Shown here one piece after another: positions 2,970-43,118 of a stretch of 64,000 nt of DNA. The stretch is taken from IMG/VR virus record IMGVR_UViG_3300022660_000050. One strand, 5' to 3'. Under the pieces are notes generated by a model. The model did no database searches. It was not told the origin of the DNA and saw only the letters and a program-made list of their open reading frames with translations. The DNA comes from a virus. Taxonomy: Duplodnaviria; Heunggongvirae; Uroviricota; Caudoviricetes. Numbering within the stretch: the first letter of the stretch is position 1; each line of letters starts with the position of its first letter. Both the position numbers and the translations under genes were made by a program.

Positions 2970-3264
2970 TCCGTTAAAAAATATTTTAGCCAGACTTGGC
3001 ATCGAAGAAACCGGCAAGTATGATAATCGCTTTTATATTATTAATATCGAAAATAGTGATGAGTATGCAAAAATGTACACCAAGCTAAGTAAGAATGCAA
3101 TTAACACTGAATTTCCTACTTTTGGTACAAATACTAGCAACTCTACCGTAAAAGTTACGAATTATTTTGAGCTCGAAGAAGATAATGAAAAGTATACTCT
3201 TTTCTTGATTGCTGACTTCGATAATGATAAATATTATTTAAAAATCGGAGGTTTTACCAACTAA
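2962..3264 (+). CDS. hypothetical protein
   Basis: ATG at 2962 preceded by GAGGAA. The track start at 2947 is a GTG. Confidence 0.4.
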   Translation: MNNPLKNILARLGIEETGKYDNRFYIINIENSDEYAKMYTKLSKNAINTEFPTFGTNTSNSTVKVTNYFELEEDNEKYTLFLIADFDNDKYYLKIGGFTN

Positions 3265-3623
3265 TGATTTTTGAATACTCCGCACAAAGAACTTTTAACG
3301 ATTCAATTGATGTAGTAGATATTGGTAATACTGCATTGAGATGCACAAATGTAAAACTCGATGACTATTACATTATCCTAAGAACAATTATGGGCAAAAC
3401 TTCTATTATTAAGTTTGGCCCGGTCTGTCCAGATATCGAAGTACTTATAAATGACTTTTCAGTTACCTATAAAAAAATGGACTATAAAGAAGCAGGTATT
3501 TGTAAAGAAATTGACAAGTTTATAAACGACTTCAGAAAAGAAATTAATTCAATAGAAGAAATCACCGAATACGAAGCATGGCAAGCTTTTCCAGCTGTGC
3601 AACAGTACTTTGAAAATGCTTAA
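3264..3623 (+). CDS. hypothetical protein
   Basis: ORF with ATG overlapping the upstream stop. Confidence 0.45.
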   Translation: MIFEYSAQRTFNDSIDVVDIGNTALRCTNVKLDDYYIILRTIMGKTSIIKFGPVCPDIEVLINDFSVTYKKMDYKEAGICKEIDKFINDFRKEINSIEEITEYEAWQAFPAVQQYFENA

Positions 3624-3632
3624 GAGGTATTT

Positions 3633-4001
3633 ATGGCACTAAAAGATGTAAAGAATTATTTTTATACGATGCTTTGTCAGTATATTGAAGAAAAACAGAA
3701 TTTAGCTGACTTCGAAGAAGCACTAAAAGAAGGGCATATTACTGAAGACCAAATGCAAGAAGCTATAGAGATTGTCGCAGGGCTAGAAGAAAATTATCAT
3801 AGGCTTGTTTACATTATGTATCTTCTAAATATGCCTAACCGTAAATCTAAAAAAGAAGCTTATGTAAAACAGCACAAAGAAATTCTTGATGAACTAACAA
3901 GACTTGGTGCAGATATTGACTCAGTTAAAGCAGAAAACTCAGACATGCTTATCCACTTTAAAGCAGCTCTTGAGTCTCTTAAAAACAAAAGCGAGCACTA
4001 A
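3633..4001 (+). CDS. hypothetical protein
   Basis: ORF with AGAGG RBS. Its stop lies inside a terminator hairpin. Confidence 0.45.
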   Translation: MALKDVKNYFYTMLCQYIEEKQNLADFEEALKEGHITEDQMQEAIEIVAGLEENYHRLVYIMYLLNMPNRKSKKEAYVKQHKEILDELTRLGADIDSVKAENSDMLIHFKAALESLKNKSEH

Positions 4002-4016
4002 GCTCGCTTTTTTCGG
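3987..4016 (+). terminator. intrinsic terminator hairpin (GCGAGC..GCTCGC) plus T-run
   Basis: Seen directly: aaaagcgagcactaagctcgcttttttcgg. Confidence 0.6.
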
Positions 4017-4067
4017 CTATTAAGTTATTAATTTATTAATTTAATAGATTTAAAATTATTAAAATTG

Positions 4068-4090
4068 GCTAAATTTAATGTATAATATAT
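4068..4090 (+). promoter_or_regulatory. promoter region: GGCTAAATTTAATG variant of the recurrent late-type motif, followed by extended -10 TGTATAAT
   Basis: Motif seen directly. It lies about 35-50 nt upstream of the ATG at 4122. Confidence 0.4.
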
Positions 4091-4121
4091 TGTATATTTA
4101 GATTTATAAGGAGATATTTAA

Positions 4122-4910
4122 ATGGAAACAATTATTACTGATGCTGAAGTACTTAGCACACCAGTAGAACCTTTAACATTTTTAACAGAAGAAGGTCCTA
4201 AAACTGAGGAAGGCACTGAGATTATCAGCAAGATCAAAGAAGTTCTTAATGCGAATCCAGATCTTATTGCACTTTCTGCTCCTCAGATTGGTATTAATAA
4301 GCGTATCTTTTGTTTAAGATTTAATGACCAGATTAAGACTTTTATTAACCCTATTATCACGAAAAAGAAGGGCCTCAACATTGTTATCGAAACCTGTGCA
4401 TCAATGCCTGGCAAAGAGATTGTAATCGGTAGACCTGAAGAAATTACTGTTGTTTATTACAATGATGATTTTAAGTACGAAGATAACAAGCTTATAGGCA
4501 TTGCGGCAAGCATGTTTGATCAACAGGCTCAAATTATTGACGGAGTTCTTCCTAGTGCGCTTGGCCTTGTTTCTGACATTGAAGAAGATGGCAAGATCGA
4601 AGAGTCAGACCTTGCTGAGATTATTCCTTTCTACAAAGATACCTTCTTACCTGCGCGTATCGAAAGTTTAAAGACTGTTATCGAATCAGACGATGTTGCT
4701 GCTAAGCAGTTTAGAAATCTCAAGTTTACTGAAAATGTTATCAATGGTCGTATTACAGTAGTAGAGTCTGAGCACGAGACAGACCGACATGCAAAGGCAA
4801 ATAAGGCAGCTAACAAAGCTATTGCGACGGCAGGTGCCTCTGAAAAGGCCAGACAAAGAGCCGAGTTTAAAAACTTTGTGTCAAAAGTACACAAAAAGTC
4901 TCATAAGTGA
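4122..4910 (+). CDS. peptide deformylase-like protein with a degenerate metal-binding motif
   Basis: PDF motif 1-like LSAPQIGINKRIF and motif 2-like ETCASMPG are present. The expected HExxH motif 3 is replaced by QQAQIID. The C-terminal tail is Lys-rich. Confidence 0.4.
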   Translation: METIITDAEVLSTPVEPLTFLTEEGPKTEEGTEIISKIKEVLNANPDLIALSAPQIGINKRIFCLRFNDQIKTFINPIITKKKGLNIVIETCASMPGKEIVIGRPEEITVVYYNDDFKYEDNKLIGIAASMFDQQAQIIDGVLPSALGLVSDIEEDGKIEESDLAEIIPFYKDTFLPARIESLKTVIESDDVAAKQFRNLKFTENVINGRITVVESEHETDRHAKANKAANKAIATAGASEKARQRAEFKNFVSKVHKKSHK

Positions 4911-4921
4911 GGAATAAAATA

Positions 4922-5089
4922 ATGGCAAAGAAGATGATAAGCTTAGAAATATCTGACGAATTACGAGAAGAGCTTAGATTAGAAGCTTTCAAACGTTCAG
5001 TTAGTATTTCTGCTGTTATTAGACAACTCTTAGAAGAAAGTTTACATAAGGAGAGATCTAATGAGCAGCAAAGTGAAAACAAACAATGA
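4922..5089 (+). CDS. ribbon-helix-helix (Arc/CopG-like) small DNA-binding protein
   Basis: MAKKMISLEISDELREELRLEAFKRSVSISAVIRQLLEESL has the RHH pattern. ATG preceded by GTGAGGAA. Confidence 0.5.
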   Translation: MAKKMISLEISDELREELRLEAFKRSVSISAVIRQLLEESLHKERSNEQQSENKQ

Positions 5090-6929
5090 AAGGATACTTG
5101 TAATAGTCGAATCGCCTAATAAGGTAAAAACTATCTCAGGAATACTGAAAAAGGCTGGTTATGCAAAAGCAGTAGTAATGGCCTCTGTCGGTCACATTAT
5201 GAAACTTGGCGATGGTGGACCTGCTTATAATTCAGGCATATATCCAAAGCAAAAATTTAGAATGAATCTGGCTATTGCTGATGATAAGCAAAAAGTAGTA
5301 GCAGATATTATCGCACAGGCAAAAATTGCAGATAAAATTTATATTGGAACCGACCAAGATAGAGAAGGCTTTGTAATTGGGTGGAGCTTAATTAAATTTT
5401 GTGAACTGCCTGTTGACAAGTGCTTTAGGATCGTTATGCATGAAATAACACCTAAAGCAGTTGTATATGCATTAGAAAATCCTGTACCTTTTGATGATAA
5501 TATCGTAAATGCTGGGCTAACCAGAATGATGATAGATAAACTTATTGGCTACGGTCTTAGTCCTTTAGCGAAAAAGTATCTTGGTGCTAAGTCAGTTGGG
5601 CGGTGTCAGTCCGTTGGACTTAAACTTGTTTCAGACAGAGAAAAAGAAATTATGGATTTTGTACCAGAAATGTATTTTAATCTATATTTAAACTTTATAA
5701 AAAATGGTACAGCTTTTAAAGCAAAATATGCTGGGTATAATGACGAGGTTATTGATAAATTTTCAAGGCAAGCTGACGTTGATGCGGTTATAAACAACTG
5801 CAAAGGTGGTGCTTATATAATTGAAGATACCAAAGTGGTTAAGCACCAAGAGTCTCCAAAACCGCCGTTTTGTACTGCTACTTTTCAACAGGAGGCAGCG
5901 AATAAGCTCGGTCTTAAAGTAAAAGATGCTATGAGCTGTGCGCAAAAACTCTTTGAAGGAATTAGTCTAGCTGGCGAACACATTGGTTTGATTACGTATA
6001 TGCGTACAGACTCTACGGAATTTGCACAAGAATTTATTCCAGAACTAAAAACTTTTATAGAAAATACTTACGGCGCAGCCAGTTATGTAGGGCCAAGAAA
6101 GTCTAAACAAAAAGAAACAGACCAAGATGGGCACGAAGCCCTTAGAGTCACAAACCCGAATCTGACTCCAGATATTGTAGAGGCTACCACTGGCAATGAA
6201 CTACTTGCAAAAGTTTATAGGCTAATATGGCAACGTACTGTTGCTTCAGCAATGCCAAATGCAGTTATTTCAGAAACAATTTATATAATTAATAATAACG
6301 GGCATAAATTTACGCTTAGCTCAAAAGAGCTTTTAAGTGCTGGTTATAAAGCAGTATATGAATACGATGATACTTCTGACATAGCTTCTACGCCTATATT
6401 TACCGTTGGCGAAACCTTGGAAGATGCTGAGCTTGAGGCAGCTAAAAAATTTACACAACCTAAGCCTAGGTATACAGAGGCAAGTTTAGTTAAAGAGCTT
6501 CAGAATAGAAGTATCGGCCGACCATCTACTTATGTAACAATAGTAGAAACAATTTTAAGCCCAACAAGAGGTTACGCAAAGTTGGAAGAAAAGCACATTG
6601 TTCCTACTGATCGTGGTATGCAATTAGCTGACTACTGTAATAGGTCATTCCCTACTTTAATAAATTTAAATTATACTAAAGAAATGGAAGAAAGCCTTGA
6701 TAAAATTGCCGGCGGTAAAATTCTTTGGCTTGACTTTATGGAAAATTTCTATAAAAATTTACAAGATATTATTGGAGCCACTAATGAAACCGGTATTGCT
6801 CCAGAGATGCCAGAGAAAGAGTGCCCAAATTGCGGCAAACCTATGGTAGTTAGAAGAAGCAGATTTGGAAAACTATTCTATGGTTGCTCTGCCTACCCTA
6901 AATGCAGAGGAATTATCAGTATTGATTAG
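5061..6929 (+). CDS. DNA topoisomerase type IA (Toprim domain plus C-terminal zinc ribbon)
   Basis: N-terminal ILVIVESPNKVKTISG matches the Toprim/topo I motif. Active-site-region GLITYMRTDST is present. C-terminal CPNCGKPMVVRRSRFGKLFYGCSAYPKCRG is a Zn ribbon. AAGGAGAG RBS. Confidence 0.8.
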   Translation: MSSKVKTNNERILVIVESPNKVKTISGILKKAGYAKAVVMASVGHIMKLGDGGPAYNSGIYPKQKFRMNLAIADDKQKVVADIIAQAKIADKIYIGTDQDREGFVIGWSLIKFCELPVDKCFRIVMHEITPKAVVYALENPVPFDDNIVNAGLTRMMIDKLIGYGLSPLAKKYLGAKSVGRCQSVGLKLVSDREKEIMDFVPEMYFNLYLNFIKNGTAFKAKYAGYNDEVIDKFSRQADVDAVINNCKGGAYIIEDTKVVKHQESPKPPFCTATFQQEAANKLGLKVKDAMSCAQKLFEGISLAGEHIGLITYMRTDSTEFAQEFIPELKTFIENTYGAASYVGPRKSKQKETDQDGHEALRVTNPNLTPDIVEATTGNELLAKVYRLIWQRTVASAMPNAVISETIYIINNNGHKFTLSSKELLSAGYKAVYEYDDTSDIASTPIFTVGETLEDAELEAAKKFTQPKPRYTEASLVKELQNRSIGRPSTYVTIVETILSPTRGYAKLEEKHIVPTDRGMQLADYCNRSFPTLINLNYTKEMEESLDKIAGGKILWLDFMENFYKNLQDIIGATNETGIAPEMPEKECPNCGKPMVVRRSRFGKLFYGCSAYPKCRGIISID

Positions 6930-6936
6930 TAATTAA

Positions 6937-6953
6937 TTGCTAAATTAATTGAT
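6937..6953 (+). promoter_or_regulatory. late-type promoter motif TTGCTAAATTAATTGAT
   Basis: One member of the roughly 13-copy intergenic motif family, 55 nt upstream of the ATG at 6992. Confidence 0.5.
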
Positions 6954-6991
6954 AATTTAATAATTACAAAAATAAATAAAGGAGAGTTATT

Positions 6992-7993
6992 ATGGCTCGT
7001 ATTTTTACTACACCTGAGTCAGAGCAGAAAGCAAAACTTGTAATGCATGACTTGACTCTGGCAGGTGGAATTAGAACAAGTAACCAAAGAAGCGGCGGTT
7101 CTACTAATTTCTCAAGCAGCTTTATTGGTGCAGCACAGCAAATTTGTACAGAGCTTGTTGAACGTGAGTTTAAAGATGTTGATGCAGCTATTAAAAATGT
7201 CTCGTATTATGGCTTTGAGCCTATGAATGGAGGACGTTACTTCCGCTATAAGCCTGAAGCTATCGCTAAAGCTGTGGTTTATATGGCAGAATGTGTTGGC
7301 TTGTATTGGGATGATACTATTAGAACTCCTTATGAGATAACAGAATTTAAGAAAACACTTTTAGGTGAAGCTGTTTATAAGTATGGCAGATATATTTCAG
7401 CGCTTTCTGGTAAGACTGCACAGAGCTCTGCCACAGCTTCTACTGGTGGTGCTCAGGTTGCACCTTCTGCGCCTCAAAATAATTATAAGCAGTCTGGTCC
7501 TCAGTCCGGTAATGTTAGAGACCTACAAGGTAATCCAGGTGATAAGGTGACCGCAGATACTAGCCTTATTTATAAAATTATTGCTGATAAGGTAGGTAAA
7601 AACACTCCTAATGTGTTTATTAAGCCTCTAAGTTCTTCTGGTGCAACCGGAAATACTAATAAGATTTTTATCAGTAGCGGTAACGGTTATACAGACTGTA
7701 CATGCTATTTTGATGACCCTAATGAGGCTCAGACTTTCTTAGATAAGATTGTAGCAGCTAACCGTGTGCCTGCTAATATTAATAATCTACGTGTCGTTAA
7801 AATGAAGGCAGACCCAAATGGCTATTTCCTTGTTGGTACTGAATTTGGTGTAGTAGCCGTTAGTGCTAAAACCTTAAATGAAGCACTTAATGAAGGTGTT
7901 ACTGAAGACCTTTCTGGCGGCTGGAAAAAGGCTACAGAAGGCTGTAGCAAGGAAGAACTAGATGAGCTGCACACTTGGATGCGCAAAGATTAA
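6992..7993 (+). CDS. hypothetical protein (codon usage typical of highly expressed genes)
   Basis: GGAGAG RBS. Codon choice resembles the capsid and sheath genes. Confidence 0.55.
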   Translation: MARIFTTPESEQKAKLVMHDLTLAGGIRTSNQRSGGSTNFSSSFIGAAQQICTELVEREFKDVDAAIKNVSYYGFEPMNGGRYFRYKPEAIAKAVVYMAECVGLYWDDTIRTPYEITEFKKTLLGEAVYKYGRYISALSGKTAQSSATASTGGAQVAPSAPQNNYKQSGPQSGNVRDLQGNPGDKVTADTSLIYKIIADKVGKNTPNVFIKPLSSSGATGNTNKIFISSGNGYTDCTCYFDDPNEAQTFLDKIVAANRVPANINNLRVVKMKADPNGYFLVGTEFGVVAVSAKTLNEALNEGVTEDLSGGWKKATEGCSKEELDELHTWMRKD

Positions 7994-8006
7994 TAGGAGG
8001 ATAACA

Positions 8007-9416
8007 ATGAAAATTAATAAAATTATAACTGAAAGTATTTTAGATACAGAGCTTGTAGAAGAAGTTATTACTGAGGCTGAAGATACAGCCGCTGAAGCTT
8101 CTGCGGACGAGCTAGTTATCGATAATGTTGTAAATGCGCCTGTAGATGAAATCGCTGACGCAGTTAAGGCTGCTGCTGAAGAAGCTTCTGATGGCGAGGA
8201 AACTTACTCCGATGCTAAAGCAGAAAAAGTAGCAAATGAAATCAAGACTTATGCTAAAGGCTTTGATACTGCTACTTGGGCACCTCTTGATGTAAGAAGT
8301 GCTCTTACTGATGCGCTTGATGACTGCCTTGCGGCTTCATTCGAGTCTAAAGCTATTGGTACTCATGATGGTACTGACATTCTAATTTCAGGACTTCCTG
8401 GTTCCGGTAAAACCGGTATCACAAAGCAGTGGGCAAGGGATAGAGGTGTAAATCTATTCTACCTCAATGCTAAAAACGATGACCTCGGCGCTATCCTTAA
8501 CGGTTTCCCTGTTGATACAACAGAAACAACAGATGATGGCAGAAGTGTACATACAGTAGCTAGATCTTATTCTAACTCACTTGATGCGCTAGACAAAGAA
8601 AGATCTGTACTATTCCTTGATGAATTTAACAGAGCTCCTGCTAAGCTTCGTGCCGTACTTCTTTCACTAATTAATGAGCACGTAATTGACGGTAATGGTC
8701 CTGATGGTTATAGACACTTTGATAACCTGCTCTTTACTGTAGCTTGTATTAACCCTGCAGTTCCCACAGACCCTGGCGCAATGGAGCTTAATGACGCTGA
8801 AATGTCTCGTTTTGTAGACACTATGGATTGGGACTCTACTCCTGAGGAAGCAATTAAATATATTAACTGGTACATTCCTGAAAAAGTTATTAAGAGCATT
8901 CCTCATGACGAGAATTACAATGCTCTTTACATTAGAGCTAAGAAGAGATTAAATTTAGCTAACGCATTGCTTGCAGACTATCGTTTTGAGTTTGACTCAC
9001 GCGATGACTTACTTGACTTGTTTCAGACAAAATCAAAGATGTTAAACCAGCGCTCAATTACCGACGCTATTATGAAACATGGTCATGATAAAAATAAATT
9101 CCTTGCTTGGGTAGACCAAAAGTCTAAATTCCTAGATAAGGATAAAGAAATAATCCATGAGATCCTTGATTCTTGGGTTGAGCCTGACGTTATTATGCCA
9201 GGTGCCGGAGATAACAATGAAGAGCCTGCCCCAACAACTTCAAGCGCTAAGAGTACTACTTCAGATAGTGATGATTTTGATAGTGTATTCGGTGCTGGCG
9301 GTGATGAGACTGATACTGACCTCTTCGGTTCAACTGCATCTGCGGCAGGTGCTGCTGCAAAGGTTAGCTCAGCTGACGCACTAAACCGTATTAAGAGTTT
9401 CGACTTCTCACTTTAA
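8007..9416 (+). CDS. MoxR-like AAA+ ATPase
   Basis: Walker A LISGLPGSGKTGITKQW, Walker B VLFLDEFNRAP and sensor region AVLLSLINEHVIDG resemble MoxR/RavA/CbbQ-type ATPases. TAGGAGG RBS. Confidence 0.6.
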   Translation: MKINKIITESILDTELVEEVITEAEDTAAEASADELVIDNVVNAPVDEIADAVKAAAEEASDGEETYSDAKAEKVANEIKTYAKGFDTATWAPLDVRSALTDALDDCLAASFESKAIGTHDGTDILISGLPGSGKTGITKQWARDRGVNLFYLNAKNDDLGAILNGFPVDTTETTDDGRSVHTVARSYSNSLDALDKERSVLFLDEFNRAPAKLRAVLLSLINEHVIDGNGPDGYRHFDNLLFTVACINPAVPTDPGAMELNDAEMSRFVDTMDWDSTPEEAIKYINWYIPEKVIKSIPHDENYNALYIRAKKRLNLANALLADYRFEFDSRDDLLDLFQTKSKMLNQRSITDAIMKHGHDKNKFLAWVDQKSKFLDKDKEIIHEILDSWVEPDVIMPGAGDNNEEPAPTTSSAKSTTSDSDDFDSVFGAGGDETDTDLFGSTASAAGAAAKVSSADALNRIKSFDFSL

Positions 9417-9441
9417 TTCTAGTATAAAGGAGATTTATACT

Positions 9442-10602
9442 ATGCATATAAATAGAGCATTACTTGAATCTTCTGATATTACTAAGCACTTTATGACTGG
9501 CAGAGAGAGACAGGTCAAAAAAGCTCTCTGCCAGCTTTTAATAGATAAAGGGCATAGAAAATATGCAGAACGATTCTGGAAACTAGATTTCAATATCATA
9601 GACTCTAAGAAGCATCCTGATTTTACTGCTGCAATTTCTTTTGATGATGCGACTGTTTTTATTAGCGATGGCTTTCTTGGTAGTGGCGAAGGTATTTTTA
9701 ATCAGTTAGATGTATTAATGCGCCACGAAATGGCTCATAATTTAATGATGCATCAGATTAGAATGATGTATGTGTTTAAAAAACTTCATGCACATGACCC
9801 GGACGAAGCTTATGAACATATTAAATATAGTAGTACACTTCATAACCTTTTAAACATTATTGAAGACTTTGAAATCTCCAATAAACGTTATAGTGCTACT
9901 GATAAGCAGATTGTACGTAACATGATGCTAAATGGTGAAATAATTGGCGGTTTAGTAACTGAGGATCATAGAGGCTGGGATAAGATGTCTCTTGAGCAAA
10001 TGTATGAAGAGCTTTCTAAGGAAATAATTAGAATAAACAGCGCAATCAGAAGTGACCCTTATTGGCGGCCAAACACAAGAACTCATAATGGCAGAGTTGC
10101 TGTAGACAACATTGAGTATAGTACTGCCAAAGCAGCAAGCCTATATCAGAACATAATGAAGCCTTCCGGTATAAAGGCGCCTATTGACGTATTTATGAAG
10201 TCTAAAACTTATAAAAAATGGCCAGAAGTTTTCCAAAAGCTTGTACAGCGGCTATATGACGAATTTAAAGATTTTACTTCTGATGCTGATAAGCAGCGCC
10301 TACTTGACCTTATTGATGATATAGCAGTATCGGCACCACAGCAAGCATGCGATGTTTTAAATCCTCTTACGGGCGAAGTAGTTTGTATTTTATATACACC
10401 AGAAGATAAACTAATTGCTACGGATGTTTTAAAAAATCTTGGTGGTAATATTAATTATAATCCATTAAAATTTAATGTTAAGCGTCAAGTAAACCCACAG
10501 GAGTATAAAGACGCTTGGAATGAGGTTGTTCGTCAGCTAGATTCTAGTAAGTTTGATGATGAGACCCTTAGACAGTTACAAGATGCTATTAATGCAATGT
10601 AA
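9442..10602 (+). CDS. HExxH-motif protein, putative metallopeptidase associated with vWA/MoxR
   Basis: Motif VLMRHEMAHNLMMHQ. Located between the MoxR and vWA genes. AAGGAG RBS. Confidence 0.45.
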   Translation: MHINRALLESSDITKHFMTGRERQVKKALCQLLIDKGHRKYAERFWKLDFNIIDSKKHPDFTAAISFDDATVFISDGFLGSGEGIFNQLDVLMRHEMAHNLMMHQIRMMYVFKKLHAHDPDEAYEHIKYSSTLHNLLNIIEDFEISNKRYSATDKQIVRNMMLNGEIIGGLVTEDHRGWDKMSLEQMYEELSKEIIRINSAIRSDPYWRPNTRTHNGRVAVDNIEYSTAKAASLYQNIMKPSGIKAPIDVFMKSKTYKKWPEVFQKLVQRLYDEFKDFTSDADKQRLLDLIDDIAVSAPQQACDVLNPLTGEVVCILYTPEDKLIATDVLKNLGGNINYNPLKFNVKRQVNPQEYKDAWNEVVRQLDSSKFDDETLRQLQDAINAM

Positions 10603-10626
10603 AAACTGTGAAAGGCAGAGATAATT

Positions 10627-12330
10627 ATGGAAATTAAAGATATATTAAGTAAACTCGGAATAGACTTTTCTAACCCTGATGCAAAACGTGGAGCTTTAGA
10701 AGCGATCGATGCTATTCTTTCTTCGAGAGTTGACTTAGGCTCTGGAGGCGCAGGTGGTGGTCCGGACCTTAACGGAAACGGAGGAGAGATCGAAGTAGAG
10801 ATTGACCCTGATTTGCTGCAGCCTTCAGTAAAACACCATCCAAAAGGCGGTGGGGATGACCTTGAAGTAGAAGATGAAGAAAAGCTACTCGATAAAATAA
10901 AACACAATAAAGCTGAAGATGAGGAAGAGCCTGAAACAAGGGGCCAAGATAACCAGAGCAATTCAGAGGACTCAAGTGAGTCAGGGGAGTCAAGTGACTT
11001 TGATGGCTCCGACGAGAGCTCTGAGCAAGATGATACTGACGACTCTGAAAGCGCCGATACTGGTGATACTAAAGAAACAAGCGAAACTGAAAATTCTGAA
11101 GAAGTAGAAGAGGAAGAAGCTGAAGATTCTTCTGAGGAAGATTCTGAGGAAGATTCTGAGGAAGGTGAAAACTCTGAGGATACTAACACGGAGTTAGACG
11201 GTGAGTCTGAGATAGCTGACGAAACTGAAGATTCAGATGAAGAGGCTGAATTTAGCGATGAAGAAGAATTTCCAGATGAGCATGATTGGCTAGACGACGA
11301 TACTCGAGATGCTATGACTGATAATGGCATTAGCAGTAAGGCAGAGGCTCGTAAAGTAAAAAGAGAGCGCACGTTGCTTGCAGCAAAAGAAGCTTTGAGA
11401 AAAGCTAATGAACGCGGTGCATCAAAAGCACTTATATCTGAGCTCGAAAGCGCTATTGAGGCACTTGAAGCTCTCACAGAGGCTGTTGCAAAAAATATTG
11501 CAGACGTGTCAGATGAAGAGTTTAATCAATTAGTTAACAGAGTATTCGATGCTATAGATGCTCTTGGTACTGGTGATTTGACGTATTCTTCCGAAGAAGA
11601 TCGTCAAGCAAGAGCTCAAGAGATAAAAACTGACTTGGCGAGTAGTAAAACACAGGCGGAACTTTCAGCAGAAGATGCAGCTCAAATAAGAGCTGAAACT
11701 CAAGCAATTAAAGCAAGAGAAAAAGAAGCAGACAAATATAAAACAAAATCCAGAAGCTCGTTCCAAGGTTTCCAAGCGTTTATGGATAGCTTGCAGCGTG
11801 GTATTGCTTTACAGGTTTCTTACGAAGAAGAGCGTGATGACACTTGGTCTGCAATAAGTCGTAGAAATAGTGGTGCAGGTGTTCTTAGACAAGGACAGAA
11901 AATTAATGAGCTTCCAAATAAAAAAATTCCTATCATCGATTTCTATTTTGACCAGTCTGGTTCTTGGGATGAGAGCGATGTAGAAGTAGGAAATCAGGCA
12001 GTAGAAGCTCTTGCAAAAATGCAAGAAGATGGTAAGATAAAAATCAATATTTACTATTTTTCTAATCATGTTCATACTGATGCTGCATCAGCAAGAGCAG
12101 AAGGTGGTACCCGTGCCTGGAACGACATAATTAAAAACATAATAACAACTGAAGCAACTAACGTTGTTATTATGACCGACTCTGACATGGAAGATTGGTG
12201 GGACGGGCCAAAAGCATTGTCCTACACTGTTCCTGGTTTTGTTTGGTATCTATGGCGTAATGGTGTTAACGCACCAAGACTTCCTCGTGACCTAAAAGGT
12301 CGTGGTGGTACTATGCAGTATTCCTTCTGA
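10627..12330 (+). CDS. vWA (von Willebrand factor A, MIDAS) domain protein with a long acidic N-terminal tract
   Basis: MIDAS-like IIDFYFDQSGSWDESD (DxSxS). A D/E-rich low-complexity region lies near aa 70-220. Confidence 0.5.
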   Translation: MEIKDILSKLGIDFSNPDAKRGALEAIDAILSSRVDLGSGGAGGGPDLNGNGGEIEVEIDPDLLQPSVKHHPKGGGDDLEVEDEEKLLDKIKHNKAEDEEEPETRGQDNQSNSEDSSESGESSDFDGSDESSEQDDTDDSESADTGDTKETSETENSEEVEEEEAEDSSEEDSEEDSEEGENSEDTNTELDGESEIADETEDSDEEAEFSDEEEFPDEHDWLDDDTRDAMTDNGISSKAEARKVKRERTLLAAKEALRKANERGASKALISELESAIEALEALTEAVAKNIADVSDEEFNQLVNRVFDAIDALGTGDLTYSSEEDRQARAQEIKTDLASSKTQAELSAEDAAQIRAETQAIKAREKEADKYKTKSRSSFQGFQAFMDSLQRGIALQVSYEEERDDTWSAISRRNSGAGVLRQGQKINELPNKKIPIIDFYFDQSGSWDESDVEVGNQAVEALAKMQEDGKIKINIYYFSNHVHTDAASARAEGGTRAWNDIIKNIITTEATNVVIMTDSDMEDWWDGPKALSYTVPGFVWYLWRNGVNAPRLPRDLKGRGGTMQYSF

Positions 12331-12350
12331 TAAATGAGGTTAAGGTATAT

Positions 12351-12767
12351 ATGGTAGAATTAAAAGATAAACTTACGGTAACAAAAGATTTTATTGATGA
12401 GCTCTGTAGTAAAAGCTGGCAAGATATTGAGCAACTTCAGACACAGCTCGCTAATATAGCTGACTCTGATGAAGGCAAAAAAGTAAAGCAGCTCCTAAAA
12501 AACCTGATTACGAGTTACTATGTATTCATTGGAAGTCTAGAAAATCTAGATGATATCAATTATACTACACAAGATGTTGTACACGTTAAAGAACCGGAAG
12601 TTGTTAAAATAGAACCTCAGGCAGAACCTGATATAATGTTTGAGCCGGAAGACGAAAATACTCAAGCAAAAACAATAGACCTCGATATTAGTGAACCTTT
12701 TGAGTACTTTGTAGATTTTGACGAGCCAACAGGTGAGCCACTTACCGACAAAGACTTATACAATTAA
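12351..12767 (+). CDS. hypothetical acidic protein
   Basis: ORF with GAGG RBS, last gene before a terminator. Confidence 0.45.
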   Translation: MVELKDKLTVTKDFIDELCSKSWQDIEQLQTQLANIADSDEGKKVKQLLKNLITSYYVFIGSLENLDDINYTTQDVVHVKEPEVVKIEPQAEPDIMFEPEDENTQAKTIDLDISEPFEYFVDFDEPTGEPLTDKDLYN

Positions 12768-12772
12768 CAATA

Positions 12773-12806
12773 AAAGCACTCTAAATATTTAGAGTGCTTT
12801 TCTTTA
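12773..12806 (+). terminator. intrinsic terminator hairpin (AGCACTCTAAATATTTAGAGTGCT) plus T-run
   Basis: Seen directly. Confidence 0.6.
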
Positions 12807-12821
12807 TTTGCTAAATTATAT
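12807..12821 (+). promoter_or_regulatory. late-type promoter motif TTTGCTAAATTATAT
   Basis: Motif family member located immediately after a terminator. Confidence 0.5.
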
Positions 12822-12904
12822 GACGGTCGCGGCGGCGGACTTAGCCTTTCACCGTTGCTGTGGTCGTCTTTCTTTGTAAATAACAAGAAGGAGAGTATCT
12901 TTCA

Positions 12905-13666
12905 ATGAAAATAAATAAAACTCCTATTACAGAGGAGAAAAAACTAAAAACTAAGAAAAAGCCTTATGATTCTATCACATATACAACTGGTGATATTTCT
13001 TTAAATATAGGTAGATTCAATCAGGCTATGGGGACAGACTGTGTGGAGACTTCTGCTGAAGGCACTGAAGGCTGTGGTATGACTGAAAGTGTTGAGCTAA
13101 AGGAGGCTAAACGTTACGTTCGTAGATACTATATTCGTCCTCAAAATATCTTCTGTTCAAATAAAGCTGAGATCTTAAAAGCTCTTATTGAACTAGATAA
13201 TGCTAACTGCTCTGTTTATACTCTAAATAATCTTGGAGATGATAAAGATGTAACTAAACTTATGAATAGTGACATTATTTATTATTATGATGATGGTATT
13301 CTTTATGATAAAAATAGAGTAAAAGTAATGGACTACGACCTCTCAATTAAGAAAGAAGAGGACCGTAAACACTTTGCTAACGTGGACAAAGCTCCTGAAA
13401 AAGAATTTAAGGCAGAGTATGAGGATAGAATGACAGACGCAACAGAACTTGAGGAGAGCTTCTTTAATCTTGATTTTGACGCTGTTAATGTATTTGGTGA
13501 AAAACTAACAGAAGCAAAAGAAAGCTTTTGTTGTATTTGTGGTGAACCTATCGAAGGTCATGGAAATAACCCTGAGCCTTTTATGTCTGCAGATGATGGC
13601 AGATGTTGTGACGGTTGTAATCTCAAGTTTGTTATTCCTATGCGACTAGATAGAATGGAGGATTAA
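12905..13666 (+). CDS. hypothetical protein with a C-terminal Cys cluster (CCICGEP...H...CCDGC)
   Basis: ORF with AAGGAGAG RBS. Putative Zn-binding motif. Confidence 0.5.
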   Translation: MKINKTPITEEKKLKTKKKPYDSITYTTGDISLNIGRFNQAMGTDCVETSAEGTEGCGMTESVELKEAKRYVRRYYIRPQNIFCSNKAEILKALIELDNANCSVYTLNNLGDDKDVTKLMNSDIIYYYDDGILYDKNRVKVMDYDLSIKKEEDRKHFANVDKAPEKEFKAEYEDRMTDATELEESFFNLDFDAVNVFGEKLTEAKESFCCICGEPIEGHGNNPEPFMSADDGRCCDGCNLKFVIPMRLDRMED

Positions 13667-13667
13667 T

Positions 13668-15131
13668 ATGGCGGCGCCAGTGATTACAGACCCTAAATTA
13701 GTAATACCTACACAAGAAGATATTGAAAAACTTCTAACAGCAAAATTAAGTTATGAAGCAAAACAGAACACACCTGAGCGCGATACTTGGAATAAAGCTC
13801 ACTTTAATGAAACGCCTTGGGGTATTGCATATAACTGTAGTAAAGCTAAGTATGATAAATCGGTGGCTTCTTATAACAAAGTTCAAAGAAAGTCTAAGAA
13901 TCCACCACAGCAAAAAGCTGATGTAGCTTTAAAGTATCTTATCGTTGCTGTAGCAATTGATTGGAAAGAGCTAATTGACCAATTAAAAAGAACTCTAAAA
14001 AATTGGGGCTATACCTCACAAGATTTACAAAATATCGCTAAAAATGTTTGGTTAACTGACGCGCAGTATATTGCAAATCTATGTGACCGTGTTACAGTAA
14101 CCAAGTTAATTGAGCAAGAGCTTGGCGAGCAGTCTAAAACAGAACTAACCGAAGCTATTGAGAAACATGATAGCTTAAACAATAAGCTCTTTACAAAAGA
14201 AGAGTTGCTAAAAGATCAAGTAAGAGATAAGATGCTTGAAATTGTCGACGAATTTTTAGCAGACCTTAAAGAGCAGGATGTTAAAATAAAAGTTGATGAT
14301 ATCCTTATGATTGGCTCTAATGCTAGCTATAATTATACAAAAGATAGTGATATTGACCTTCACGTTCTTGCTAACGCTAAAGCCGCTGACTACTCTACCG
14401 ATATAGCAAATGCTCTATATAGTGCATATCGTTCACTATTTAATAAAAATTTAGATATCAAATTGTTTGGCATTCCGCTTGAAATCTTTGTTGAAACTGA
14501 GGAGAGCACAAGAGTAAGCAATGGTGTTTATTCCGTAAAGAAAAATAAGTGGATTAAAAAGCCTGTTCACGAAGATATCCCAGACTATGACAAGGAAGCA
14601 CTAAACAAACTTGTTGATGAGTGGGAAGATAAGTGTAAAAAACTTATTGATGATATAAAAGCAGATAAGCTTGAAGATGAAAAGAAAGTAGTTAAGATGC
14701 TAGAAGAGATATATGATAAACTCCGTAAAAAAGGCATCTCGAAAGGTGAATACTCTACAGAAAATTTAACTTTTAAAGAGCTTCGTAATAAAGGATATTT
14801 GGACCAGCTAAAAGACTACAGAAATGAGCTTGTATCAAAGAGATTATCTCTTGAGGAAAAACTCGATAGACAGCAAAGAGTTGATATTTATAACCAGCTT
14901 TTTAGAGCTGCCGGCACACAGCCAGTTATCCAAGATAACGGAATGTTCTTTATATATAATCTAAAGGCTTCTGAGGTTGACGCTGCGTTAAGTGCGATAA
15001 GAAGACTTCCATTTGTTATTGAAGTCCATGCAAATGAAAATGGAAAGTATGACTTCTCAAATACACTTGATATAGCAATGAACAAAATACCTAAGAAATA
15101 CTATAATATCCGAGGTACTCTTAAAATATAA
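13668..15131 (+). CDS. nucleotidyltransferase (Pol-beta superfamily) fold protein
   Basis: ILMIGSNASYNYTKDSDIDLHVL fits the h-G-S-x9-13-D-h-D NTase core. A helix precedes it. Possible downstream acidic residues at EIFVETEE. Confidence 0.45.
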   Translation: MAAPVITDPKLVIPTQEDIEKLLTAKLSYEAKQNTPERDTWNKAHFNETPWGIAYNCSKAKYDKSVASYNKVQRKSKNPPQQKADVALKYLIVAVAIDWKELIDQLKRTLKNWGYTSQDLQNIAKNVWLTDAQYIANLCDRVTVTKLIEQELGEQSKTELTEAIEKHDSLNNKLFTKEELLKDQVRDKMLEIVDEFLADLKEQDVKIKVDDILMIGSNASYNYTKDSDIDLHVLANAKAADYSTDIANALYSAYRSLFNKNLDIKLFGIPLEIFVETEESTRVSNGVYSVKKNKWIKKPVHEDIPDYDKEALNKLVDEWEDKCKKLIDDIKADKLEDEKKVVKMLEEIYDKLRKKGISKGEYSTENLTFKELRNKGYLDQLKDYRNELVSKRLSLEEKLDRQQRVDIYNQLFRAAGTQPVIQDNGMFFIYNLKASEVDAALSAIRRLPFVIEVHANENGKYDFSNTLDIAMNKIPKKYYNIRGTLKI

Positions 15132-15133
15132 AG

Positions 15134-15170
15134 TAAAAGCACTCTATTTTTGATAGAGTGCTTTATTTTT
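15134..15170 (+). terminator. intrinsic terminator hairpin (AAAGCACTCTAT..ATAGAGTGCTTT) plus T-run
   Basis: Seen directly. Confidence 0.6.
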
Positions 15171-15178
15171 ATTAAATT

Positions 15179-15196
15179 TATTTGCTAAATTATACA
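15179..15196 (+). promoter_or_regulatory. late-type promoter motif TTTGCTAAATTATACAG
   Basis: Motif family member, 47 nt upstream of the ATG at 15226. Confidence 0.5.
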
Positions 15197-21366: not shown

Positions 21367-23277
21367 ATGGATTTAAATAAAAAAAGAATTCTTGAAGCGT
21401 TACAGATGCAGCCACTATCACCTGAGGAGATGGCCTCTAGACATATTTTAGGCAGATTGTATGGTCCTATTGCTACGTGTGTTGAAAGCACCAGAAACGG
21501 TAGACTTTACAACAAGCCACTTTGGGAGAGAGCCCTACAAGATGACATCTTTTTAGAGAAGGTAGCTACTAAAGCACTTTTCCTAGAACTCGGTCATCCC
21601 GCTGATAGAGAAGAGACAGATATGAAGCAGGCATGTGCTTGTATTCCTGAGGTGCCAAAGATTGTCGGCGACGACCTTTGTGCTTATGTTGATATTCTAG
21701 ATACTCCTAACGGTAGACTGCTAAAAACGCTCGTAGATTATGGATTTGTTCCTGGAATCAGTTCACGTGGTTCCGGTGATGTAATGGACAACAACCAGGT
21801 TGACCCAGAAACATTCTTTTTGGAAACTTGGGATATTGTTCAACTACCTGCAGTTAAAAAAGCAAGACTTAATGTTTGTGAATCTTTAGACTCTGAAGGC
21901 CTTAAGCTTAAGAAAGCTTTAGCTGAGTCTTATAAGGCTGCAAAAGAAGAGGATAAAGATACTATGAAAAAGGCACTAGAAAATTTAAATATTGATATTG
22001 AAAATGAAATCTCTGACGAGGCACCTATCGAAGAGTCAACTAGACTTACTGCTGAGGATATTCCTTGGGCAGACGATGAAGAGATTCTAACAGAAGAGAT
22101 GCCTGCTGAAGAGGAAACTGAGGAAGCCGAAGAAGAGACTACTGAGGAAGCTACTGAAGAAGCTGATGTAGCTGAACCTACTGATGAAGAAGTTCCTGTA
22201 GAAGCAGAAGAAGCAGAGGTAGAAGAGCCTGAAGTAGTTGATGTAACCGGTGACGGTGAAGCGGATGTCAGCACTGTCGGAGATGCTATCGAGTTGCTTA
22301 AAGAATTCGACGAAGATACTAAAGTAGAATTCGAGGCTACTGATGCCAATGGAGAAGTTGCTCCTGTAGATAATATCGAACATTACATAGACGATGATGT
22401 TCTTGTTCTTAATGTGAAATCCTGCGAAGCTGAAGAAGAACCTTCAGAAGTCGCAGATTCAAATATAGAGACTGAAACTGATGAAATTCCTGTTGAAACC
22501 ATCGAAGAAGTAACCAATGATGAAGGCACAGCCGACGATGACGGAGATGACGAGGTCATTGAGAGCTTGAAAGAGATGGTCAGACAGAAAGAAGCTTTGG
22601 AAACCGAACTTAGTGATTTGCGTAAAGCTAAAGCAGTTGGCGATGCCAAAGAACAAGAGTTACAAGAAAAGCTTGGCCGGTACAGAACTGCATTTAGAAA
22701 TACTAGTGCAGAAGCTGCAAAAGTTCCTGAGCTAATTGCAAAAGTTGAAGAGCTCACAGAAAAACTTAACCAATCGCAACAAAATGTAAAAGTATTAACT
22801 GAAAAGGTTAATAAAGCACAACAGCTAAAAGAGAGCATTGAAGGCAATAAGGCAAATGAAAGACGCTTAAATGAAGAAGTGTCTAGACTTACTAAAGAGT
22901 CTAAAGCTCTTGAAGCTAAACTTGAAGGTCAAACAAAAGTTTATACTGAAAAACTTCAGGAAAGAACAAACCTTGCAAAAGCTTATAAAGCACGCTATAT
23001 TGAGTCACTCAATAAGTATGTAAAATCTAAAGCTGACATGCTCGGTGTTGCACCTTCAGAAATTACAAGCCGCCTCAATGAGAACTTTACTCTCTCAGAT
23101 GTTGATGCTGTTTGTGACAAAATTCTTGATTCTACTGTCAATTTCAGTAGACTTCCTTTCGGTGGAAGAACTAAAACATCTGCTCGTATAGCTGAATCTG
23201 TATCTAGACCTGCTAAGAATAATTATGACGACGATGACCTTAGTGACCTTCTCGAGCTTGCCGGATTGAAGAAATAA
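21367..23277 (+). CDS. putative scaffolding protein (possibly with an N-terminal protease domain). Acidic middle region and coiled-coil C-terminus.
   Basis: Lies between the portal and major capsid genes. Contains a long D/E tract and a heptad-like Lys/Glu/Ala-rich C-terminal half. Confidence 0.4.
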   Translation: MDLNKKRILEALQMQPLSPEEMASRHILGRLYGPIATCVESTRNGRLYNKPLWERALQDDIFLEKVATKALFLELGHPADREETDMKQACACIPEVPKIVGDDLCAYVDILDTPNGRLLKTLVDYGFVPGISSRGSGDVMDNNQVDPETFFLETWDIVQLPAVKKARLNVCESLDSEGLKLKKALAESYKAAKEEDKDTMKKALENLNIDIENEISDEAPIEESTRLTAEDIPWADDEEILTEEMPAEEETEEAEEETTEEATEEADVAEPTDEEVPVEAEEAEVEEPEVVDVTGDGEADVSTVGDAIELLKEFDEDTKVEFEATDANGEVAPVDNIEHYIDDDVLVLNVKSCEAEEEPSEVADSNIETETDEIPVETIEEVTNDEGTADDDGDDEVIESLKEMVRQKEALETELSDLRKAKAVGDAKEQELQEKLGRYRTAFRNTSAEAAKVPELIAKVEELTEKLNQSQQNVKVLTEKVNKAQQLKESIEGNKANERRLNEEVSRLTKESKALEAKLEGQTKVYTEKLQERTNLAKAYKARYIESLNKYVKSKADMLGVAPSEITSRLNENFTLSDVDAVCDKILDSTVNFSRLPFGGRTKTSARIAESVSRPAKNNYDDDDLSDLLELAGLKK

Positions 23278-41921: not shown

Positions 41922-43118
41922 ATGGTTGGATTTATTTTTGGCATTATCTTCCTCATCGCCGGTATTATTACCGCTGTTTGTCTTGCACAGTATAAGAAGA
42001 CTGAGAAGACTGAAGAGTACGTACTCGACGAAGGAGGCAATCGCGTAAGAAACGCTTATGGCGGTTATCAGACTACAATGAAGAGTACAGTTACAAAGCC
42101 TCTTGCAAAGTTCAGTGTAGTTTCTGTAGTTGCAGGTATTTTCCTCGGTCTTCTTCTTACTTTCTTCGGCTGTATTGCTTCAGTTGATACCGGTCATGTT
42201 GGTATTGTAAGAACATTTGGTAAGGTTGAGAATTATACCTTTGATGCAGGTTTTCATCTCAAGGCACCTTGGCAGTCTGTAACTAAGATGGATAACAGAG
42301 TACAGAAGACTACTATTGAGCTTCCTTGCTTTAGCTCCGACATCCAGGAAGTAAATACTACATATACTGTAAACTATCAGATTTCAAAGACTAATGCTCA
42401 GAACCTCTATAGAGATATTGGAACTGGTTATCTTGAGACTGTTGTAAATCCCACAATTCAGGAAACAGTAAAAACTATTATTGCAAAATATACGGCAGAG
42501 GAACTTATCGGTAAGCGTGCAGAAGTTGCTGTAGAAATTGAGACTTTGCTTACTACAAATCTTCAGAAGTATAATATTGATGTATCTTCTACTGCTATTG
42601 AGAATATGGACTTTACCGATAGCTTTACTAATGCAGTTGAGGCTAAAGCTGTTGCTGCTCAGAATAAGCTTCAGGCTCAGATTGAGCAGGAAAGACTTAC
42701 TATGGAAGCTCAGCAAGCTGCAGAGCGTGCTAAGGTCGAAGCTGCAGCTCAGGCTGAGGTAAATAAGATCAATGCAAATGCACAGGCCGAAGTTGATAAA
42801 ATTAAGGCAGAGGCAGATGCAAAAGTTGCTGAGATTAGTGCAAACGCAGCAGAGTATCAGGGTCAGAAGGATGCAGCTATTGCGCTCCAGAGACTTGCTT
42901 CTATTAATGGTTGGACAGTAAAGACAGAAAAGATTGATGATACACACACTAAGTATACTGTGTGTTATGCAGATGGCACTCCTGTAACTGAAGCTGACCT
43001 TAAGATTGGTGCTCAGAGACTTATTGAGTATTATTACACTCAGTCTTGGGACGGAAAGCTTCCTGATACTTTTGTAGGTGACGGCGACGTTTCTAATATC
43101 ATTATCGGTAATAACTAA
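41922..43118 (+). CDS. SPFH/band-7 (HflK/C-, prohibitin-like) membrane protein with a C-terminal coiled coil
   Basis: N-terminal TM helix, then GHVGIVRTFGKVEN..FDAGFHLKAPWQSV..DNRVQ and the downstream SPFH pattern, then an Ala/Gln/Glu coiled coil. Confidence 0.65.
   Translation: MVGFIFGIIFLIAGIITAVCLAQYKKTEKTEEYVLDEGGNRVRNAYGGYQTTMKSTVTKPLAKFSVVSVVAGIFLGLLLTFFGCIASVDTGHVGIVRTFGKVENYTFDAGFHLKAPWQSVTKMDNRVQKTTIELPCFSSDIQEVNTTYTVNYQISKTNAQNLYRDIGTGYLETVVNPTIQETVKTIIAKYTAEELIGKRAEVAVEIETLLTTNLQKYNIDVSSTAIENMDFTDSFTNAVEAKAVAAQNKLQAQIEQERLTMEAQQAAERAKVEAAAQAEVNKINANAQAEVDKIKAEADAKVAEISANAAEYQGQKDAAIALQRLASINGWTVKTEKIDDTHTKYTVCYADGTPVTEADLKIGAQRLIEYYYTQSWDGKLPDTFVGDGDVSNIIIGNN

Follow-up and report, generated by a model that had tools for sequence, protein, structure and literature searches.

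Layout of the operon

MoxR-type AAA+ ATPases that pair with a protein bearing a von Willebrand factor A (vWA) domain are widespread remodelling machines, and phage versions equipped with a zinc peptidase are found in T4-like jumbo, BCSR5, N4-like and PBS1-like phages. What, then, is the role of an operon encoding a MoxR-like ATPase, an HExxH protein and a vWA protein, located at positions 6937–12806 of a 64,000-nucleotide stretch of viral DNA (IMG/VR record IMGVR_UViG_3300022660_000050, Caudoviricetes; hereafter the window)? A preliminary description, made from the letters of the window, had recognised these three proteins and had suggested either a virion-associated chaperone or maturation machine or a counter-defence module. 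Our computational analysis points to a split-gene form of the phage MoxR-DUF2201 system that would act as an accessory assembly or processing chaperone on a structural or assembly protein, an interpretation to which we attach about even chances.

The five genes of the operon, which like all long open reading frames (ORFs) of the window lie on the + strand, occupy positions 6992–12767 and form one transcription unit with the promoter-like motif and the hairpin terminator that bracket them (Table 1). The 9-mer GCTAAATTA is present in 12 exact copies in the window, all of them intergenic and on the + strand, against 1.74 copies expected, and none of 100 shuffles reached this number; further copies stand 5' of the prohead protease, gp13-like, sheath and baseplate genes, and the next promoter motif with GCTAAATTA follows directly after the terminator at 12808–12818. 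The same layout was found in ten related viral loci from IMG/VR (L001–L010): these keep the gene order topoisomerase, g333, AAA+, HExxH, vWA, g138, g253, g487 and g318 (g138 in nine of the ten), the promoter motif upstream of g333, the terminator-then-promoter order 3' of the module and hence the bracket around it, including in L010 at 35–40% protein identity. The operon boundaries of the preliminary description are thereby upheld, and the neighbourhood comparison that it had called for shows conservation. The same three products (333, 469 and 386 aa) are predicted by the public gene calls for an identical contig. For the AAA+ gene, an alternative start at ATG 7962 was rejected in favour of 8007, as most orthologues of the related loci (L001–L005 and L010) and the call on the identical contig use the MKI start. 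A scan of positions 6800–13000 against Rfam gave sub-threshold noise only.

The three core proteins

The four motifs by which the proteins had originally been recognised (GSGKT, LDEFNRAP, RHEMAHNLMMH and DQSGSWDE) are all present where they had been placed. In the product of the second gene, the AAA+ core (about aa 115–290) is preceded by an acidic, alanine-rich N-terminal region (aa 1–110) and followed by a helical C-terminal region, with a disordered and acidic C-terminal tail that contains DFDSVFG and DLFG motifs. Its MoxR-like identity is supported by Pfam matches above the cut-offs for AAA_3 (30.2 bits; cut-off 27) and AAA_5 (27.7 bits; cut-off 22) and by the profile of its alignment (A4), whose best match among PDB structures is the MoxR structure 2r44 from Cytophaga (E 2.8e-9), extending from Walker A to the Arg finger and, at the level of sequence, across the region of the helix-2 insert; the margin is modest, since the D2 domain of ClpA is a close second at E 2e-8. 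When orthologues of the window clade are aligned with the sequences from the metagenomic contig L012 and Burkholderia phage BCSR5, the Walker residues listed in Table 1 are invariant, as are A246, I248, N249, P250, S267, R268 and F269 around sensor-1 and the putative Arg finger. The Walker B segment VLFLDEFNRAP aligns to ILADEVNRSP of 2r44, whilst ACINP and MSRF align to ATQNP and VDRF. Thus, as judged from its sequence profile, the AAA+ protein is of the MoxR class, and the gene for the vWA protein lies two genes downstream of it in the same operon.

The vWA protein comprises a conserved N-terminal segment of 75 aa, the poly-acidic tract, a helical region (aa about 240–400) and a compact vWA domain of about 135 aa that lies at the extreme C-terminus and has no effector domain fused to it. 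The metal ion-dependent adhesion site (MIDAS) is made up of D442-x-S444-x-S446 (nt 11941–11973), which lies in the stretch FYFDQSGSWDE (aa 439–449), T495 in EGGTRAW (nt 12100–12120) and D518 in VIMTDSD (nt 12166–12186); all five residues are invariant in 46 homologues. The structural model displays a Rossmann-like vWA fold with the MIDAS residues at canonical positions: at the end of beta1, in the loop before helix 129–139 and at the end of beta4. No Pfam family was matched at E <= 0.1, VWA-type models included, and assignment to the vWA family is based on this modelled fold together with profile homology to DUF2201-type vWA domains. In a fold search against predicted structures of viral proteins, the best matches of the model were proteins annotated as 'metallopeptidase' or 'VWA-like domain' from phages Zuri, KSY1 and FBKp27, cyanophage S-TIM5 and PBS1; lower in the ranking stood ORF892 of Acidianus two-tailed virus (ATV; rank 23, E 7e-3) and CobT-like phage proteins (ranks 29, 39 and 41).

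The acidic tract of the vWA protein, previously put at roughly 150 aa, is confirmed by its composition: across the 160 residues of aa 76–235 there are 45 E, 32 D and 22 S (48% D+E), and the densest stretch found with a sliding window, aa 110–238, contains 36 E, 26 D and 24 S at a net charge of -59. In 117 homologues the tract is between 46 and 171 aa long, and its DNA consists of imperfect GAA/GAT-rich tandem repeats. A minus-strand ORF at 10533–11477 (314 aa, Ser-rich) was rejected as a gene because it is the reverse reading of these repeats. In this AAA+ clade, MIDAS domains are generally preceded by D/E-rich linkers, as known from Rea1, BchD and CobT. An equivalent tract is carried by protein QRE00206 of phage BCSR5 and by the metagenomic fusion proteins described below, and the acidic linker is consequently a shared trait of the long forms, not a peculiarity of the window. 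As a separate observation, a 4-kb metagenome contig (L015) that is otherwise identical over the vWA gene carries T11586G, which converts Tyr320 to an amber codon and results in gene calls of 319 and 231 aa, and at about the same place the vWA orthologue of L010 (9065–10877) also falls into two ORFs that overlap; these splits may mean that the vWA part can be separated from the acidic N-terminal part, or they may be errors or variants.

The HExxH protein consists of a zincin-like domain (aa about 14–209) and an alpha/beta domain (aa about 210–386). In a diverse profile of the N-terminal domain (A7; 26 sequences of 27–55% identity), R107 and D154 are invariant in addition to the residues of the zinc-binding motif, as are D142 and, just upstream of the EDFEISNKRY helix, N138; in the HExxH alignment A1, invariance extends to E144, I145, S146, N147, R149 and Y150, which makes E144 a candidate for the third zinc ligand or the 'Glu helix' residue. 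Searches with the protein itself produced no Pfam DUF2201_N match, sub-threshold matches only to Peptidase_M48 (16.7–18.3 bits; cut-off 20.3; the L010 orthologue does exceed the M48 threshold), no match among PDB sequences and no fold match of the AlphaFold2 model, which is confident for the C-terminal part and of low confidence for the N-terminal part. An exhaustive profile search, on the other hand, retrieved 363 representative proteins, and the HExxH is kept in every representative of at least 200 aa whose sequence reaches the motif position. The distant hits (E 1e-18 to 1e-22) are proteins of 500–680 aa that match aa about 18–200 only, in which the HExxH domain at the N-terminus is followed by a middle part rich in acidic residues or Gln and by a D[QR]SGS motif in the C-terminal part; these fused relatives exceed the Pfam DUF2201_N threshold (28.5–57 bits; cut-off 23.2) and also give sub-threshold matches to the DUF2201 'VWA-like' family. 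The PDB matches of profile A7 are marginal and almost all to M48 peptidases, BepA and the minigluzincin MJ1213, aligned over the strand and the HExxH helix. Homology to the fused family and the alignment with M48 peptidases and minigluzincin at the HExxH identify the protein, transitively, as a divergent zincin-like protein of the DUF2201_N type. The original guess at this type thus holds by way of the fused relatives, although not by any direct Pfam or fold match, and of the Pfam families then named, AAA_3 and AAA_5 are matched by the window proteins whilst the VWA and DUF2201_N models are not. The points on which the preliminary description could have failed came out in its favour: the MoxR matches are significant, the MIDAS is canonical and the HExxH aligns to that of M48 peptidases and minigluzincin. 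In single-sequence scans of the HExxH and vWA proteins against PHROG, NCBIfam and PADLOC nothing was found, and single-sequence phmmer searches of the module proteins against PDB gave nothing useful.

The identity of these components bears on two further explanations, both of which we regard as very improbable. The first is that the genes encode a fragment of a CobS/CobT- or BchI/BchD-like chelatase, an auxiliary metabolic function for metal insertion into a tetrapyrrole or metalloenzyme. In CobT and BchD, too, a vWA domain at the C-terminus goes with an acidic linker, there is a weak match of the AAA+ protein to phrog_249 ('porphyrin biosynthesis', E 8.9e-6), and CobT-like phage proteins appear among the weaker fold matches mentioned above; however, a generic family of ATPases is the better of the PHROG matches of the AAA+ protein, Pfam CobT and CobS are not matched, metallopeptidase/VWA-like phage proteins outrank the CobT-like ones in the fold search, and the partner is homologous to DUF2201_N/DUF2201 proteins, the conserved HExxH of which chelatases lack. 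This reading was rejected: neither the CobT/CobS signatures nor, among annotated ORFs, a CobN partner was detected. The second explanation is a phage-borne vWA-MoxR ternary conflict system (VMAP/iSTAND) serving superinfection exclusion or abortive infection, which might fit the three-component make-up of the operon (MoxR ATPase, vWA protein and a third partner). In the bacterial systems, the third component is a VMAP-C or inactive-STAND protein and effector domains lie C-terminal to the vWA domain (Kaur et al. 2020; PMC7159879), whereas in the window both of these are absent, a DUF2201_N-type zincin takes the third place, nothing follows the vWA domain in its protein and PADLOC gives no match; moreover, in this T4-like lineage of lytic type the module is conserved as a core-like cassette. 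The architecture of the third component and of the vWA terminus led us to reject this reading, which is largely refuted.

Split and fused forms of the module

In order to relate the window proteins to the fused relatives, profiles of both were compared using hhalign. Alignment A1 of the HExxH protein matches the N-terminal 190 residues of the fusions over aa 14–209 (99.8%, E 2.6e-30), and the vWA alignment matches their C-terminal 225 residues (100%, E 7.9e-47). The same result was obtained by BLASTP against one protein of L012: the HExxH protein matches its N-terminal half (E 4e-26) and aa 316–545 of the vWA protein match its C-terminal half (36% identity, E 1e-36). Because both window proteins map onto the two halves of one fused protein, their genes are, by sequence homology, the split form of a fusion of DUF2201_N zincin, acidic linker and vWA domain. 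The MIDAS motif is kept in the fused relatives, which lack the C-terminal alpha/beta domain (about 180 aa) of the window HExxH protein. The MoxR gene stands directly 5' of the zincin-vWA fusion in L012, L016 and BCSR5. In L012 and L013, the order reads gp23, DUF7487/Mom-like, a small gene, a nucleotidyltransferase-like gene, MoxR, fusion, one gene and gp13; in L016 it reads MoxR, fusion, leucine-rich repeat proteins and gp13, with the cassette about 5 kb upstream of gp13. Apart from this, several genes of L012, L013 (ENA ERZ15609952/ERZ15610059) and L016 contain in-frame TGA, and a neighbouring gene of L016 has five in-frame stops under table 11; since the database protein and conserved Trp positions are recovered when TGA is translated as Trp, this fusion-bearing T4-like phage appears to use TGA-to-Trp recoding.

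Among GenBank phages, the AAA+ core is the only part of the module to find a match by tblastn, in Burkholderia jumbo phage BCSR5, whose QRE00205 (AAA_5) is the nearest relative there of the AAA+ protein (31% identity over the core). The gene just downstream encodes QRE00206, in which the domains follow each other as in the window: DUF2201_N (34.5 bits) comes first, then some 200 aa of acidic tract, and last a vWA domain that carries DxSxS...GGT...D. Unlike the window proteins, however, QRE00206 is a single fused protein of 602 aa, and beyond the MIDAS strand its similarity to them is very low: when the window profiles were compared with this single sequence by hhalign, no information was gained on the zincin, and in the vWA domain the alignment was confined to the MIDAS strand. 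The N4-like Pseudomonas phage ZC03 possesses the family pair of the window module in YP_009830540 (DUF2201_N 121.7 bits; DUF2201 92.9 bits), which differs in being a compact 385-aa fusion without a long acidic linker; the gene immediately upstream is annotated as an ATPase, with a 250-aa product that has no Pfam match. RefSeq calls YP_009830540 (L018, 4320–5477) an 'HNH endonuclease', which is probably a mis-annotation. By BLAST, the N4-like vWA region weakly resembles the metagenomic fusion P0380, and DUF2201-type proteins are also encoded by N4-like, PBS1-like, KSY1 and cyanophage genomes. Homologue searches returned 514 proteins for the HExxH protein, 278 for the vWA protein and 454 for g333.

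The source phage

The window contains genes for portal, a separate gp21-like head maturation protease (21367–23277), major head protein, tail sheath, a T4-type baseplate protein, gp13- and gp15-like neck proteins and NrdD, and its capsid protein shares 48% identity with a Pfam Gp23 protein of a related contig. Contigs that encode an identical HExxH protein reach 220 kb, and those with close relatives of it measure 208–243 kb. On the strength of this head, neck and tail gene set and of the size of the relatives, the source is assigned as an uncultured T4-like jumbo phage. No close relative was found among 50,697 GenBank phage records: the 6-kb region gave no megablast match, tblastn of the HExxH and vWA proteins (E <= 10) yielded noise only, and the fusion proteins P0358 and P0380 gave nothing or weak N4-like vWA matches only.

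Proposed function

As to what the module acts upon, a structural or assembly target is favoured because the promoter motif is shared with virion genes and because the cassette is located in or beside the morphogenesis block of T4-like relatives. Virion maturation, which the preliminary description had listed among its possibilities, is our best guess. By analogy with NorQ/NorD, CbbQ/CbbO, RavA/ViaA and Rea1, the AAA+ protein would form a hexamer, with the vWA protein as an adaptor whose MIDAS metal site could grip a target protein at an acidic residue; through its long poly-acidic, helical linker this adaptor would be coupled to the ATPase ring, a proposal modelled on the D/E-rich linkers ahead of the MIDAS domain in Rea1, BchD and CobT. 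ATP hydrolysis would then pull or twist the adaptor and so remodel the target, which, once exposed, could be cleaved by the zincin; in the fused forms this domain is part of the same chain as the adaptor, whereas here it presumably binds without a covalent link. Such a module would act in addition to the canonical gp21-like prohead protease, and g333 and g138 may be lineage-specific partners or substrates. The best mechanistic template is NorQ/NorD, in which electron cryo-microscopy shows a finger of the vWA domain entering the hexamer pore and ATP-driven twisting that remodels the adaptor linker (PMC13036017). A bolder version, which we consider rather improbable, is a self-contained late 'unfold-and-clip' machine in which g333 and/or g138 would be captured by the MIDAS, pulled by the MoxR ring and cut by the zincin, with g487 as partner. 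If true, T4-like jumbo phages would possess a second route of proteolytic maturation, driven by ATP and not dependent on the gp21 prohead protease, and the natural gene fission would show which parts need covalent joining.

Several observations weigh against a role in virion assembly or processing. A copy of GCTAAATTA also precedes the NrdD gene, so that 'late' is not proven: with the motif 5' of protease, gp13-like, sheath and baseplate genes but also of NrdD, the label 'late-type' given to the promoter is a reasonable inference that falls short of demonstration. Module codon usage differs from that of highly expressed virion genes: with capsid and sheath genes as reference, the five genes have a codon adaptation index (CAI) of 0.50–0.61 compared to 0.83 for the capsid gene, and g333 ranks 24th of 60 ORFs, with an effective number of codons of 43.8 versus 30.7 for the capsid gene, which contradicts the earlier view of a 'codon-optimised' first gene and a 'capsid-like codon bias'. 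Linkage to morphogenesis genes is not universal either, since the contexts in ZC03 and in Staphylococcus jumbo phage DC4 are non-virion: the ZC03 pair lies among RNA polymerase and small early/middle genes, and in DC4 an AAA ATPase gene that adjoins the gene for an acidic 643-aa 'metallopeptidase' is situated near replication and transcription genes (PMC10638138). The zinc-binding motif of BCSR5 QRE00206 reads HLVTH and thus lacks the catalytic Glu, which indicates that catalysis is dispensable in at least one lineage. Finally, a literature search on DUF2201 found no functional study, and we know of no DUF2201_N family member that has been assayed for peptidase activity. Given the N4-like and DC4 contexts, the promoter copy at NrdD and the purely computational basis, our confidence in the function is moderate.

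These same contexts are what an alternative target would explain, namely a host protein or complex, or a non-structural phage complex, with a function in host takeover or counter-defence. The DUF2201 pairs of N4-like phages and DC4 have early/middle or replication genes as neighbours, structural genes are not alone in carrying the promoter motif, the module follows topoisomerase and peptide deformylase genes, and bacterial vWA-MoxR systems include conflict systems (PMC7159879). Against this, the cassette is embedded between capsid and neck genes in T4-like relatives, the promoter motif of the operon is common to virion genes, no PADLOC defence model is matched, which leaves the counter-defence role proposed earlier without a hit, and the vWA protein has no fused effector domain. 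A non-virion target is therefore unlikely in our estimate, if worth keeping in view.

Alternatively, the proteins, or the acidic vWA protein alone, might be packaged in the capsid or ejected, with the acidic tract as an internal or DNA-mimicking element. The late-type promoter and the extreme charge of the tract would agree with this. So would the MoxR-like ATPase peptide reported for purified DC4 particles, yet this detection comprises one peptide with one peptide-spectrum match and is flagged by the authors as possible co-purification (PMC10638138). The tract is poorly conserved in length, and no capsid-targeting or gp21-type cleavage signal was noticed, no dedicated search having been made. 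As acidic linkers before the MIDAS are general in the AAA+ clade, a role in packaging is not needed to account for the tract; packaging or ejection is accordingly improbable, and an accessory chaperone for assembly or processing is the reading that we prefer.

Relation to described systems

The triad had been called unusual for a phage, a view that the literature does not support: a MoxR and metallopeptidase-vWA pair has already been described for group 2.2 jumbo phages by Iyer et al. (2021, Viruses 13:63; PMC7824862), and DUF2201-type proteins occur in further phages. The authors propose a virion-assembly role with peptidolytic processing and cite the MoxR-vWA pair of ATV, which is needed for tail development (PMC7824862). 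Likened by description, the group 2.2 pair (ASV44729.1, ASV44728.2) shares with the window the three domains, the gene adjacency and the T4-like phage type, with T4-like morphogenesis genes and a genome of about 210–240 kb on both sides. Differences lie in the separate genes for zincin and vWA domain in the window, in the additional zincin C-terminal domain, vWA N-terminal 75 aa and partners g333 and g138, and in the divergence of the window HExxH and vWA proteins, which is too great for direct Pfam or GenBank-phage BLAST matches. The ATV pair, p618 (MoxR) and p892 (vWA), is, like that of the window, a viral MoxR-vWA pair, and for no other such pair is a part in virion (tail) morphogenesis backed by experiment (PMC7824862); ATV, however, is an archaeal virus, and its pair lacks a metallopeptidase domain and has no detectable sequence similarity to the window. 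The bacterial pairs NorQ/NorD, CbbQ/CbbO and RavA/ViaA mature metalloenzymes and, unlike the window, come without a peptidase. Phage 0305phi8-36 has been annotated with a two-subunit MoxR chaperone (PMC2147016).

Thus, the kind of system was already described, and current views are not overturned by our finding; new are the gene fission, the zincin C-terminal domain, the N-terminal segment of the vWA protein, the partners g333 and g138 and, apparently, a conserved linkage to a nucleotidyltransferase-like gene. The window adds an abundant uncultured lineage of T4-like jumbo phages in which a naturally split fusion stands under a virion-type promoter. This split provides separable parts for genetics and biochemistry, namely ATPase, peptidase and adaptor with acidic tether, and the proposed function predicts a defect in assembly or processing upon removal of any one of them.

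Table 1. Coordinates of the operon, its genes and motifs, and the linked gene g487 in the window.
Feature	Position (nt)	Strand	Basis or remark
Promoter-like motif TTGCTAAATTA	6937..6947	+	45 nt 5' of g333 start codon
g333, first operon gene	6992..7993	+	Lineage-specific protein
MoxR-like AAA+ ATPase, 469 aa	8007..9416	+	Pfam AAA_3/AAA_5, profile match 2r44
Walker A GLPGSGKT (aa 129–136)	8391..8414	+	G129, G132, K135, T136 invariant
Walker B with MoxR-type DExNR, VLFLDEFNRAP (aa 201–211)	8607..8639	+	F203, L204, D205, E206, N208, R209 invariant
Sensor-1 ACINP (N249) and putative Arg finger MSRF (R268)	8742..8813	+	Invariant residues
HExxH protein, 386 aa	9442..10602	+	DUF2201_N-like zincin domain and C-terminal alpha/beta domain
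Zinc-binding motif RHEMAHNLMMH (aa 94–104)	9721..9753	+	R94, H95, E96, H99, H104 invariant
EDFEISNKRY helix	9862..9891	+	Conserved; predicted helix 131–149
vWA/MIDAS protein, 567 aa	10627..12330	+	Fold, MIDAS, profile homology
Poly-acidic D/E/S-rich tract (aa about 77–238)	10855..11340	+	Composition
vWA domain (aa about 432–567)	11920..12327	+	Complete MIDAS
g138, last operon gene	12351..12767	+	Small acidic protein, isoelectric point 4.06
Intrinsic-terminator-like hairpin	12772..12801	+	13-bp stem, then T-run
g487, Pol-beta-type nucleotidyltransferase-like	13668..15131	+	GS...DxD motif nt 14313–14363; next transcription unit

Operon partners and neighbouring features

The first gene product, g333, is composed of two conserved halves and a linker with an invariant NYKQSGPQSGN.R.L.G.PG.K (nt 7478–7546). 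It is syntenic in L001–L010 and has no match in Pfam, PHROG, NCBIfam, PADLOC or, with the profile included, PDB; none of the best 120 of its 454 homologues carries a Pfam domain. The last gene product, g138, has an acidic EPF-x-YFVDFDEP tail, with the conserved C-terminal motif EPFEYFVDFDEP (nt 12693–12728). Its absence from one of the ten related loci refers to L008, where a tblastn match is lacking, and searches of Pfam, PHROG, NCBIfam and PADLOC returned no family for it.

In the following transcription unit, g487 shows weak matches to NTP_transf_2, Polbeta and MntA-like families. Homologues are encoded within a few kb of MoxR/DUF2201 genes in L012, L016 and L017, that is in four lineages with the window, and the linkage persists although the position of the cassette relative to gp23 and gp13 varies. 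In L012 the homologue (3051–4763; 44% identity) is directly upstream of MoxR; in L016 (17–247 and 1143–1310) and L017 (3821–4354 and 6610–6789) the homologous segments are parted by other ORFs, as if the gene were interrupted there. The nucleotidyltransferase-like protein may thus be a fourth component of the module.

Further observations concern the surroundings of the operon. A complete type IA topoisomerase (5061–6929; Toprim, Topoisom_bac and zinc ribbon; 343 bits) is encoded directly upstream of it, preceded by a peptide deformylase (4122–4910), identified through the Pfam Pep_deformylase match of the identical 262-aa product of contig L014. The terminator-plus-promoter cassettes at 12772–12818 and 15136–15192 share a near-identical hairpin stem (AAAGCACTCTA...TAGAGTGCTTT), followed in each by TTTGCTAAATTA, and look like a repeated intergenic punctuation element. 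A GC-rich hairpin (12825–12870) with the conserved loop GGACTTAGCCTTTCACC lies in the 5' leader of g253, just past the 12808 promoter motif; it is kept in seven related phages with 14 predicted pairs, three of them with compensatory changes, has no Rfam match and may represent a structured RNA in the leader. At 41922–43118, the window encodes a protein of the SPFH/Band 7 family (108.9 bits): its CAI of 0.69, the second-highest capsid-like codon adaptation in the window, suggests that this gene is highly expressed.

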